From Eledone cirrhosa (Eukaryota), in the NCBI GenBank assembly GCA_964016885.1, contig OZ024740.1, positions 29,450,001 to 29,514,000 of the forward strand: a stretch of 64,000 bases of DNA. The letters run 5' to 3'. The notes beneath the pieces are model-generated. The model worked only from the letters and a program-made list of their open reading frames with translations, had not been told where the DNA came from and ran no database searches. Below, in pieces: positions 14,406 through 62,767 of the stretch. How positions within the stretch are numbered: position 1 is the first letter of the stretch; every line of letters starts with the position of its first letter. The position numbers and the translations under genes were made by a program.

Positions 14406-14756
14406 ATTAGAAAGTGAGGTTTTTTTTTTTACAAAATGAAAAATAACCGATGTGTCCTACACGAGTGGAAGTATAAAGAAAAAGGGATGAAATCGAAAAT
14501 GCAACTGAAGTCTTATTTTTTTAAAAAATATATATATTTATTTGGTTCCTTTACCGGTTTCGCAGTTCTTCTGCTTTTCAAAAGGTGAGTTGAGATGGAG
14601 GGTCTGTGGTTTTTCTCACCACAGACCCTCCATCTCAACTCACCTTTTGAAAAGCAGAAGAACTGCGAAACCGGTAAAGGAACCAAATAAATATATATAT
14701 TTTTTTAAAAAATAAGACTTCAGTTGCATTTTCGATTTCATCCCTTTTTCTTTATA
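14406..14756. mobile_element. Perfect fold-back element (arms 14472-14610 and 14618-14756) with ~65 bp tail
   Basis: Perfect 139 bp inverted arms, 7 nt loop, an HHR in each arm, (TA)n flanks. Confidence 0.85.
14643..14680 (+). ncRNA. Minimal hammerhead ribozyme, U3-A8 core (mirror copy 14548-14585, minus)
   Basis: cctt TTGAAAA gcag aagaa ctgc GAAA ccgg TA aagg. Confidence 0.7.
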
Positions 14757-14860
14757 TATATATATATATATATATACATATACATACATATATATATATA
14801 TATATATATATATATATATATATATATATATATATATATATATATATATATATATATATA

Positions 14861-16320
14861 TATTGTTATACTTTGGGAGGGTCATGTTGCCAATAAGAAA
14901 CACACGCACCAGTTGCTTTCACTTCAATTTAATTTATTATATATTTATAAATTTACAAATTTATAAATTTATGGTTGGTTGGTTGGTTCCACAACCAGAT
15001 AGTTGTTTATATATATATAGTCATAGTTCTTTCGTCACACACTCTGTGACCTCTTCAGTGACTGGGGATTTCTTTCTTCGTTTCTGTGCCTTTCCTTTCT
15101 TCTATCCTACGCCATTTTGTTTGTGTATGGGTTGCGTGCTCAGTTTGCGCATGCGCCACATCCGGGTGTCTGTGTGTGTTTGTGTTCATTTTTCTATTTT
15201 TCTATTTATATTTTTCTATTTGTTTGTTTATTTATTTATTTATTGTTGGTTGGTTGTTTGTTCTATGTGTGTGTGTGTTTTCATTTTGTCTTGTGTGTGT
15301 TTTCATTTTGTGTGTGTGTTTCAATTGTAAGTTGTTTGTTCTATGTGTGTGTGTGTTTTCATTTTGTCCTTAATTGTAAGTTGTGATGTTGCTGTTCCAC
15401 TCATATTTTCTATTTAATTTTGGTTTTAATTCTTTTATGCTTACTGCCTCTGTAATTTGCCTAAACATTGCGTCTTTCTTGTGTGTGGATTCTATTTTTA
15501 TTTCTATGCTCTCTAATTTACCCCTGTGTTCTATCTTAGCATGTTGGTAGAGCACAGAATCATCTGTGCTCTACCAACATGCTAAGATAGAACACAGGGG
15601 TAAATTAGAGAGCATAGAAATAAAAATAGAATCCACACACAAGAAAGACGCAATGTTTAGGCAAATTACAGAGGCAGTAAGCATAAAAGAATTAAAACCA
15701 AAATTAAATAGAAAATATGAGTGGAACAGCAACATCACAACTTACAATTAAGGACAAAATGAAAACACACACACACATAGAACAAACAACTTACAATTGA
15801 AACACACACACAAAATGAAAACACACACAAGACAAAATGAAAACACACACACACATAGAACAAACAACCAACCAACAATAAATAAATAAATAAACAAACA
15901 AATAGAAAAATATAAATAGAAAAATAGAAAAATGAACACAAACACACACAGACACCCGGATGTGGCGCATGCGCAAACTGAGCACGCAACCCATACACAA
16001 ACAAAATGGCGTAGGATAGAAGAAAGGAAAGGCACAGAAACGAAGAAAGAAATCCCCAGTCACTGAAGAGGTCACAGAGTGTGTGACGAAAGAACTATGA
16101 CTATATATATATAAACAACTATCTGGTTGTGGAACCAACCAACCAACCATAAATTTATAAATTTGTAAATTTATAAATATATAATAAATTAAATTGAAGT
16201 GAAAGCAACTGGTGCGTGTGTTTCTTATTGGCAACATGACCCTCCCAAAGTATAACAATATCGGTTTCAACACACGATTTCAGATAAAGAATCTTGCTAA
16301 ACAAATTCAGAAACGAAATA
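14861..16320 (+). mobile_element. Penelope-derived 1.4 kb palindrome (~700 bp arms) with 60 bp tail
   Basis: Arms mirror about 15559-15562; each arm encodes a GIY-YIG C-terminal remnant (RQITEAVSIKELKPKLNRKYE) and an HHR. Confidence 0.88.
16058..16102 (+). ncRNA. Hammerhead ribozyme (mirror copy 15019-15063, minus)
   Basis: agtca CTGAAGA g gtcac agagtgt gtgac GAAA gaac TA tgact. Confidence 0.78.
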
Positions 16321-17091
16321 TATATATATATATATATATATATATATATATATATATATATATATATATATATAAGAACCAGTAAGACCCCGACAGCTGA
16401 GCTCAAGCCGTTTCGACGGCTAATTCTGGACTAAATGAACATTTATCCTGGTATTTAAATAGCCGATCTTCTCAAGGGGTAATTCCATATATGGTCAAAG
16501 TGATTGTCAAAAATCAGTAGTAATTCTGTGGTTGCAAATTAGTAGGGGAGATGGTGGCTAAACCTGCCAGTAGGAGAAAGAGGGGAGGGGGTGGAGTAGA
16601 CCCAATCAAGCGTTGGTAGTGCCAGCTACAGCTGGGCATGAGGTCAAAGAAGATACAGGGGAGGGGGAGGGGGAGGAAGTCGGAACGGTAGGTAGAACAA
16701 TGGGGGGTAAAAATAGGAAAGAAAAAATACTGAGAGTGAAGAAAAGCAAATAAGTGTAAAGAAAAAATTAAATTCTACGACCTAGGTGTCAGGCTATTGT
16801 TAGGCGAGAATAAAATAAAGAAAGAAAGAAAGAAGTAAATAAATAAATAAATAAATAAATAGGGAAATAAGTAAAAGAACTAATTAGGCAAGGACCCTTT
16901 TAAGAGGTATAAGTACGTAAATGATACGGTGACTGGTCAACAAAAGGGGCCAAAATACTAAAGAGACTACCACGAAATAAACAATAAAGGTTTCCATCCC
17001 GGGCCAGCAACGACCCAGTGCAGCAAAGTGAACTTGTACGACATAATAATTCTGAGTCCCGGGAAAAATATATACTAATGCTAACTCTAAA

Positions 17092-61230: not shown

Positions 61231-61422
61231 AGTGATATATATATATATATATATATATATATATATAAATATATATATATATATATATATATATATATAT
61301 ATATATATATATATATATATATATATATATATATATATATATATATATATATATATATATATATATATATATATATATATATATATATATATATATGTAT
61401 GTATATATATATGTATATATAT

Positions 61423-61606
61423 AAGAGCTTCTACAGGACTAGAACTGTTTCATTTGTGAGAAATCATCAGGAAGCTTCTTGATGATTTCTCACGAATGAA
61501 ACAGTTCTAGTCCTGTAGAAGCTCTTCTATATTAAAACATTTATACTCTGCTATGTATTGATTATCTTACTTACTGTGGTTACCTCCGATTCAACCCGGA
61601 ATAACT
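61423..61606 (+). mobile_element. Mini fold-back HHR element; intact HHR at 61426-61476 (-)
   Basis: agcttc CTGATGA tttctcacaaat GAAA cagttctagtcctg TA gaagct. Confidence 0.8.
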
Positions 61607-61900
61607 TATATATATATATATTGTTATACTTGGGAAGAGTCATATTGTTGTAATATTACAAGAAATAATAACAGAACACACTCACTGTTTGGTTGGTTTT
61701 CACTTCTGTATCTTTCATATCTCCATAGTTAATTTATTTGGCAAACAATGTTTATCAGTGATTGACCGATATACAGATATAAATATATATATATATATGT
61801 ATATATATATATATATATATATATATATATATATATATATATATATATATATATATATATATATATATATATATATATATATATATATATATATATATAT

Positions 61901-62767
61901 AAAGAATTAATATCTAGTAACATATATATACATACAGATGCATATCAATGCTACCAAATATATAGGTTTTGTCTTAGTAACTTTGTGGTTCAATGCATGG
62001 GGTTGCAGAACAATAATATGAGAGACGTAAAATAAGAAAATTATAAAATTAACTTACTTACTAAAATATCACTTCCAACTAATTAGTTTCTGGAATGGAA
62101 TAAATATATTTTCCGAAGAAAATACGGAGAATCATTCCGTCGTCAGGGAAGACTATTCTCATCTAAGTATCCAGGCAAAGTGTGGACTTTGGAAACTTAT
62201 TAAAAAATAATTCAGTGGATAGAAAAAAGCAAAGCGTGGACTGAATTCCTAGCCATTGAGAAAATCACTGCCTCTGCGTCGGTGGCAAATTCAAAAAGAA
62301 TCAATCACGTGACATCGAGGTCAATCAGTGGAAAGTGGTTTGCTAATAAGACAGCAGCCTGCCTGCTACCATAGCAGCAGTCATGGCCAATATTGCTCGA
62401 CAAATAATTTGGAGATAATTATAAAGAATTAATATCTAGTAACATATATATACATACTGATGCATATCAATGCTAGCAAATATATAGGTTTTGTCTTAGT
62501 AACTTTGTGGTTCAATGCATGGGGTTGCAGAACAATAATATGAGAGACGTAAAATAAGAAAATTATAAAATTAACTTACTTACTACAATATCACTTCCAA
62601 CTAATTAGTTTCTGGGATGGAATAAATATATTTTCCGAAGAAAATACAGAGAATCCTTCTCTGTATTTTCTTCGGAAAATATATTTATTCCATTCCAGAA
62701 ACTAATTAGTTGGAAGTGATATTTTAGTATGTAAGTTAATTTTATAATTTTCTTATTTTACGTCTCG
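61901..62767 (-). mobile_element. Retrozyme-like element: ~1.45 tandem 522 bp monomers plus inverted arm; HHR at 62071-62152
   Basis: 61901 repeats at 62423; fold-back at ~62655; cttcc CTGACGA cggaatg..cattcca GAAA ctaattag TT ggaag. Confidence 0.85.

Follow-up and report, generated by a model that had tools for sequence, protein, structure and literature searches.

One-tailed, head-to-head insertions between (TA)n runs in an Eledone cirrhosa window and their bearing on how Penelope-like retrotransposons may be primed

We analysed a 64,000-nt stretch of the Eledone cirrhosa genome (assembly GCA_964016885.1, contig OZ024740.1, positions 29,450,001 to 29,514,000, forward strand), hereafter called the window, whose own numbering is used throughout. 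Self-comparison of the window and an automatic scan over 1128 pairings of its TA runs led to 13 scored insertions from seven families (A, B, C, D, E, F and I), each flanked by (TA)n runs; two of these families, A and D, encode proteins with the motifs of Penelope-like elements (PLEs). All 13 scored insertions consist of two head-to-head arms, of which one, and never both, bears a tail. The tailed arm (T) ends in a family-specific tail of 60–134 nt, and the tail-less arm (N) stops at a fixed internal site upstream of that tail. Together, these insertions occupy 16.5 kb of the window. Nine of them had been named in a first-pass annotation of the same DNA, and all nine were recovered where it had placed them, between (TA)n runs. 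The same scan yielded four additional cases (F1, I1, E1 and E2), of which F1 lies at the start of the span covered by that annotation (14406), undescribed in its text.

Because pairs of TA runs were the starting point, TA flanks were selected for by design. The scan control, the sequence reversed but not complemented, gave 86 hits and was swamped by microsatellites, so that it is not a clean null; the real scan was also rich in microsatellite-only matches, and the true cases were chosen by their non-repeat arms. Significance therefore rests on the length and identity of the arms and on the recurrence of their ends among copies. All scan matches at zero offset were internal TA runs within larger palindromes. 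Two candidates and a short hairpin (56195–56271) were kept outside the 13, having no second copy or no TA run on both sides. One of them, the possible case J1 (101–343), has arms of 37 nt and a tail of 31 nt but no second copy; the other, the old relic D3 (57158–57416), shows on its left the tail alone (77% identical to D1), with a left flank that is not TA, and on its right a tail-less arm ending at TA. The hairpin is 77 nt long and begins at a TA run but has none immediately on its right.

Family A is represented by three insertions. A1 (16375–20417, plus strand) joins an antisense tail-less arm (16372–17094) to a sense arm (17089–20417) that carries an 80-nt tail. The left side of A2 (34605–34758) holds the tail and ~20 nt, and its right side a 58-nt tail-less arm; A3 (58302–58436) has the same left side and a tail-less arm of ~36 nt on the right. 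Matched arms in A2 and A3 are only 17–20 nt long, and the case for these two rests on exact agreement with both ends of A1. In B1 (14864–16317, plus strand), arms at 14860–15558 and 15563–16261 are 100% complementary around a 4-nt loop, with a 60-nt tail on the right and a hammerhead core at 16063. B2 (59630–59969, plus strand) has a left tail-less arm of 74–77 nt and a longer tailed arm, again with a 60-nt tail. The perfectly complementary arms of A1 (723 nt) and B1 (699 nt) are far beyond chance.

The three family C insertions are built from short units. C1 (23615–24902) has a tailed arm of about one unit on the minus strand (23615–24170) and a longer tail-less arm that is a partial tandem (24169–24902), with hammerheads at 23882 (minus), 24201 and 24759; C2 (24943–25824) has a tailed arm (24943–25342) and a longer tail-less arm spanning a unit junction (25341–25824), with hammerheads at 25188 (minus) and 25698. 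C3 (61902–62768, minus strand) has a tailed arm of 1.45 units of 520 nt (61902–62655), a 3-nt loop, a tail-less arm of 112 nt and a hammerhead at 62146 (minus). An A/T tract of C1 differs between the arms in a manner resembling a micro-inversion (24110–24140 versus 24300–24330 and 24855–24885; also the 23790 region).

The largest insertion, D1 (44942–51194), comprises a 4.6-kb tail-less arm (44942–49529, minus strand) with the order pseudo-long terminal repeat (pLTR), open reading frame (ORF), pLTR, and a tailed arm (49543–51194), with a 13-nt insert at the arm junction and hammerheads at 45040 (minus), 49037 (minus) and 51008. A short interspersed nuclear element (SINE)-like insert at 45404–45596 is present in the tail-less arm and absent from the tailed one. 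The first-pass annotation had given D1 an 87-bp tail and a longer antisense arm carrying the whole ORF; the antisense arm is indeed the longer one, but the tail measures 88 nt and the ORF is split over two frames. The remaining insertions are small. E1 (61036–61234, plus strand) is a hairpin with a 3-nt loop and a tail of ~64 nt, and E2 (61424–61606, plus strand) is a palindrome centred on AAGCTT with an 81-nt tail and hammerheads at 61470 (minus) and 61479. F1 (14408–14752, minus strand) has a 68-nt tail on the left and arms at 14472–14610 and 14618–14756 around a 7-nt loop. I1 (20585–20965, plus strand) combines an 86-nt tail-less arm, a 74-nt loop and a 134-nt tail.

Measured tail lengths were 80/80/80 nt in family A, 60/60 in B, 124/119/118 in C, 88 in D, 64/81 in E, 68 in F and 134 in I, in line with the ~80, 60 and ~120 bp previously given for A, B and C. 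By alignment, both the tail-less end and the tail end are constant within A, within B and within C, while each of the three A, two B and three C copies has an inner junction of its own. The earlier rule that outer ends are fixed and only the inner junction varies thus describes these three families but not E and F, whose copies have nearly the same inner end; the tail-less ends of E1 and E2 differ by ~17 nt. The two arms of one insertion are 93–100% identical and have copy-specific variants in common, so that no insertion shows two different source templates. Partial tandems are present in C1, C2, C3 and D1, from which it follows that the template was longer than one unit.

Both outer ends overlap with the flanking repeat. 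At the N end, template and (TA)n coincided exactly over 3 nt or more in 5 of 7 families when one copy per family was used and E1, with its ambiguous end, was omitted, compared to 0.74 expected (P = 1.9e-4); the two families below this threshold match at 6 of 7 bases. At the T end, overlap with TA was seen in all four cases with known downstream template, being exact in C2 (3 nt) and C3 (4 nt) and containing one mismatch in C1 and D1. An initial score that extended through mismatches overstated C1, D1 and E2; the N-end figures come from the exact version. TA overlap at both ends fits priming by short TA pairing.

The overlap between arms at the inner junction could be scored in 9 of the 13 insertions and amounted to 6 nt in A1, ~3 nt in A3 and C3, 2 nt in C1, C2 and E1, 1 nt in A2 and B1, and 0 nt in D1, where the 13-nt insert is locally duplicated. 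For A2, A3, B1 and E1 the template came from a diverged copy, and B2, E2, F1 and I1 were not scorable. The aaaaga overlap at 17089–17094 in A1, pointed out in the first-pass annotation, is real and ends the antisense arm; its length of 6 nt was deduced from a conserved K-R, the residues at these columns being K/R in 103 and R in 97 of 120 homologues. Loop bases fit the template of the tailed arm in all four non-zero short loops. Two of the turns coincide with mini-hairpins in the template, C3 at GAA-3 nt-TTC (one loop base differs) and E1 at GG-3 nt-CC. Microhomology joining of independently truncated complementary DNAs (cDNAs), which the annotation had proposed as the rule, is not borne out, with overlaps of mostly 0–3 nt and near-perfect hairpins in 5 of 13 insertions.

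Arm lengths fall into three classes. The N arm is longer in 5 of 13 insertions (A2, A3, C1, C2 and D1) and the T arm in three (A1, B2 and I1), whereas in the other five no more than 7 nt separate the two arm ends (B1, C3, E1, E2 and F1; for C3 modulo its unit). With arm lengths entered by hand, only 0.32 near-equal pairs were expected under a log-uniform null and 0.54 under permutation (P = 4e-5). In B1 and C3 the template was seen to continue upstream, with chances of ~0.004 and ~0.03, respectively, and their near-equal ends are therefore not run-offs. The longer-N class excludes a simple fold-back of one tail-primed cDNA, and the near-equal class argues against independent truncation, indicating that the arms are coupled. 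In all 13 insertions the arms overlap by 17–1080 nt or more, a tail-only arm being found in the relic D3 alone, and loops of 165–2868 nt separate the paired regions in A1, C1, C2 and D1. Exact inward pairing stopped at mismatches in A3 and E2 and found no seed for B2 and J1, for which loop sizes were taken from other alignments. The T arm passes the internal site by only ~20 nt in A2 and A3 and by ~0 in D3, as expected if both primers share one RNA.

The ORF of family A (17089–19143, plus strand) is open, lacks ~33–41 N-terminal residues and reads as a Hydra-clade reverse transcriptase (RT) with a GIY-YIG domain; that of family D (46583–48801, minus strand), also of Hydra-clade type, is divided between two frames at a G-run near 47230; the protein is 40–42% identical to that of family A. 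A search with ORF 17089–19143 found 2305 relatives among 8000 scored candidates, and the best 120 of these, used for all motif counts, were mostly 38–43% identical. PMC8557442 describes Hydra-clade PLEs by an RWK-type N-terminal motif, a change of DKG to DKT, the motifs CxCX5C, CxxC and CxH, and a (TA)n target. Both window proteins contain RWR, DKT, YRDD, CxCX5C, CxxC and CxH as well as a GIY-YIG-like motif (NVIY...YIG), and the 120 homologues show RW[KR] in 109, DKT in 113 and CxCX5C in 114 cases; (TA)n runs lie on both sides of A1–A3 and D1. Judged by protein motifs and TA target, families A and D are Hydra-clade Penelope-like retrotransposons, and the Penelope identity suggested in the first pass is upheld by diagnostic motifs in both ORFs. 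Pfam gave no hits on three window proteins and three sub-threshold hits on 9 of the 120 homologues, one of them GIY-YIG; Atlas neighbours carry GIY-YIG and RVT_1, which we use as leads only, and a profile search of solved structures returned one irrelevant match (E = 0.25). A match of 17056–17076 to the N-terminus of homologues was rejected as an effect of gapped alignment. The short families C, E, F and I, of which C and E are ORF-less, probably borrow a Hydra-clade protein; family B is unplaced.

Families B, C, D and E have type I hammerheads upstream of the internal site, whereas shuffled sequence gave none. For family D, a hammerhead was present in all three pLTR copies and in none of 20 and 6 shuffles. 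The strict pattern detected family D only, and relaxed patterns B, C, D and E; the relaxed patterns found none in A, F or I, family A showing a degenerate hammerhead-like fold by eye. Rfam at E up to 1 returned 111 matches, all under the gathering score, with no hammerhead among them. Family C is an ORF-less unit of 520–560 nt (longest stop-free stretch 52–59 amino acids), partly in tandem; six units contain a type I hammerhead whose stem III is palindromic, and two complete units were never found at one locus in the window. A stable tail hairpin was not general, since z was below −2.5 in only two of eight tails, both from family C. In I1 and in each of the three E copies, the inner end lies a few bases upstream of a CTGATGA core (20671, 29405, 61100 and 61474), which suggests a recurrent RNA end or stop there.

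The window also contains copies with a single arm. E3 (29405–29530, plus strand; hammerhead at 29411) is one arm with no inverted partner, D2 (31577–31678, minus strand) a tail-less arm ending at the internal site of family D, and F2 (31967–32104, minus strand) a tail-less arm whose inner end, common to F1, adjoins a SINE-like element. B3 (56839–56931, plus strand) is a tailed arm, and B4 (61622–61647, minus strand) a short tail-less arm resting on a weak 30-nt match (E = 0.001). Other hammerhead-like motifs with no inverted partner were noted at 14128 (minus), 30151, 31303, 56460 (minus), 57620 (minus) and 59535, several of them upstream of TA runs; five came from pattern scans and 56460 from inspection by eye, and they are probably old PLE relics. 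In total, 11 of 14 pieces tested, namely the five family-matched copies and the six hammerhead relics, had no inverted partner within 1.5 kb, and the remaining three were family G copies with weak matches of 23–29 nt to one another. This family consists of ~135-nt units, partly tandem and ending at TA (58991–59271, 60112–60327 and 60741–61022). Two of the G copies, at 58991 and 60741, are 72% identical and oppositely oriented, so they might once have been the arms of a single insertion.

Beyond these elements, the window is rich in repeats and microsatellites, with 118 tandem-repeat rows and several ORFs like those of long interspersed nuclear elements (LINEs). A SINE-like family of ~190 nt, in which we presume a tRNA-like box, often ends at TA runs and has copies at 360–560, 23230–23401, 32108–32294, 43978–44080, 45404–45596 (the copy confined to the tail-less arm of D1), 55973–56163 and 63582–63650. 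Part of this family also forms a symmetric hairpin at 63634–63887 with (TTA)n flanks and no tail. Three tandem 2.5-kb decayed LINE-like copies, 94–96% identical and separated by (ACAT)n, fill 35560–43071. At 8129–13077, an open 1095-aa ORF reading as endonuclease and RT is accompanied by an upstream ORF and, downstream, by a repeat of 561–1328; we take this element to be L1/Tx1-like. Long degenerate (AAC)n and (GTG)n arrays lie at 21336–23218 and 54950–55764.

Starting from the anatomy, fixed ends, TA overlap, loop sizes and partial tandems observed in the window, we propose that both ends of a (TA)n break prime reverse transcription at two fixed sites of an RNA longer than one unit, the arms being coupled either through snap-back or through two RTs sharing the RNA, a reading to which we give about an even chance. 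The GIY-YIG nuclease would cut both strands within (TA)n, and each free 3′ end would pair through a few T/A bases with the RNA and prime reverse transcription, one start lying at the tail end and the other at the fixed site 60–134 nt upstream. The predicted product is two coupled head-to-head arms with a tail on one only. For closure, the longer cDNA might snap back at a 1–3-bp mini-hairpin, its second strand annealing to the other cDNA, or two RTs might follow each other along one RNA, stop near one place and be united by end-joining. Cutting of both strands and two RT starts have an in vitro parallel in another clade, discussed below; that both priming events belong to one insertion, and how its inner junction closes, we infer. 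Two-site priming on tandem RNA, as the first-pass annotation had it, agrees with the finding that either arm can be longer, with the TA overlap of both ends and with the partial tandems, but joining of independent cDNAs is not supported as its general rule, and such priming may not be obligate. A bolder version, which we regard as unlikely, is that in Hydra-clade PLEs a single RNA of more than one unit as a rule takes up two RTs, each at its own fixed TA-like site, and that the leading cDNA is displaced by the trailing RT; every new insertion would then be born as an inverted repeat with one tail, and retrozyme-like hammerhead units would take the same route. Were this true, it would be a retrotransposition cycle with a palindrome as its normal product, distinct from L1-type priming.

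Several points weigh against priming from both ends of the break. The window evidence for two priming events is indirect, and TA-like ends are also predicted if a TA-specific nuclease cuts hairpin DNA at two staggered sites; in a Poseidon element, RT starts were non-homologous to the cut DNA, unlike the TA overlap here (PMC11167929). In the short families of the near-equal E1, E2 and F1 the 5′ end is common to the copies, and these three may be run-offs or one palindrome copied; the permutation null mixes families of different size, and n is 13 from a single window. Moreover, no tandem-unit site in C3 or D1 shows which unit templated the second arm. A single priming event, after which one cDNA folds back and copies itself into a hairpin that a nuclease opens or trims by staggered cuts at TA-like sites, so that the tail may end up on either arm, is a possible but unlikely alternative. 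It would account for the five near-perfect hairpins, for the turns of C3 and E1 at mini-hairpins and for the identity of 93–100% and the shared variants of the arms; palindromic junctions were read as self-priming in PMC3846280, where inversion is explained by self-priming on an antisense template, and PMC8557442 ascribes the tail to nuclease resolution. To produce the five insertions with a longer N arm, however, staggered cuts of both polarities would be needed, both tail boundaries were mapped as RT start sites in PMC11167929, and the junction insert of D1 looks like a trace of end-joining.

The first-pass model, in which twin or dual priming is obligate and microhomology joins two cDNAs truncated independently of each other, seems to us rather improbable. 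It shares all outer-end evidence with the reading we favour and can cite the 6-nt overlap of A1, the 2-nt overlaps of C1, C2 and E1, and the loops of 165–2868 nt in A1, C1, C2 and D1, but the arm ends coincide in 5 of 13 insertions far beyond independence, D1 joins its arms by an insert with no overlap at all, and A2 and B1 overlap by 1 nt. The eleven single-armed pieces speak against an obligate process too, though, given their divergence, an arm may have been lost later. We see only a slim chance that some palindromes were copied whole, by retrotransposition of a transcript through an existing inverted insertion, or that arms were later homogenised by gene conversion: the neighbouring E1 and E2 have almost the same turning point, and F1 and F2 have an inner end in common, yet the inner junctions of A, B and C vary among copies while the outer ends stay constant. 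An artefact of assembly or library preparation, such as fold-back reads or mis-joined repeats, is very improbable. The arms of A1 and B1 are 100% identical and the case was judged from the assembly rather than from reads, but the palindromes end at TA runs, the tail offset recurs in independent copies, the arms differ by substitutions, a 36-nt deletion (C2) and the SINE-like insert (D1), and the same architecture has been published from other genomes.

The families are new, but both their clade and their architecture are known, and specialists would find the latter unsurprising: the standard layout of PLEs has an inverted, truncated copy and one tailed end (PMC8557442, PMC3846280), and the Hydra sheet of the PMC8557442 supplement contains one family from octopus and one whose 5′ copy is inverted. 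What the window contributes is a small scored set that narrows the question, named as unresolved by PMC8557442, of how tandem and inverted PLE structures form, together with retrozyme-like units that bear a PLE footprint. With at least seven families in 64 kb, fixed ends and scorable loops, rival models can be tested by counting. If two-ended priming is true, long palindromes and hairpin RNA would be an ordinary product of these elements, and the retrozyme-like units would show the PLE footprint directly. No twin-priming account of PLE inversions was found in the literature searched, a scope that left out most subscription papers and the older Penelope reviews.

Compared to the Hydra clade as quoted from PMC8557442, the window families agree in the RT with C-terminal GIY-YIG in a single ORF, the clade motifs, the (TA)n target and, in family D, the pLTR hammerheads. 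They differ in their tails (60–134 nt versus 30–40 bp), in their units (~3.4–4 kb versus 'generally under 3 kb') and in family A, which has no hammerhead passing our scans. Penelope elements of Adineta vaga (PMC3846280) likewise show direct and inverted pLTRs, a tail on one inverted pLTR, palindromic inverted junctions and head-to-head copies, with target duplications of 8–10 bp that are readable there and unreadable within (TA)n here. The closest biochemical counterpart is the Poseidon-clade element PAc, for which both strands were cut and extended in vitro, two RT starts bound the tail and a dimer was predicted (PMC11167929). Both tail boundaries are fixed in PAc as in our families, and it also has an upstream hammerhead and an AT-rich target; however, it belongs to another clade, its RT starts are non-homologous to the target whereas the ends here overlap (TA)n, and a stable tail hairpin, in contrast to PAc, is present in only two or three of our eight tails. 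The inverted arm is not treated in the consulted text of PMC11167929, where 'inverted' occurs once, for a primer block.

L1 twin priming yields two fragments with an internal deletion and starts from the poly(A) tail (PMC2837659). As in L1 twin or dual priming, both target ends would prime and the fragments are head-to-head; unlike it, the second site is fixed, poly(A) is lacking, hairpin junctions are common and, in place of an internal deletion between the fragments, the arms overlap in 13 of 13 insertions. Self-annealing at small hairpins has also been described at L1 breaks (bioRxiv 10.1101/2024.12.14.628481). Family C, finally, resembles non-LTR retrozymes in being an ORF-less 520–560-nt unit with one type I hammerhead per unit in partial tandem. 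Mobilisation of retrozymes by PLEs has been argued from shared hammerheads, co-occurrence and phylogeny (PMC7229834; bioRxiv 10.64898/2026.07.22.740005), whereas the family C unit itself bears the insertion signature of a PLE.

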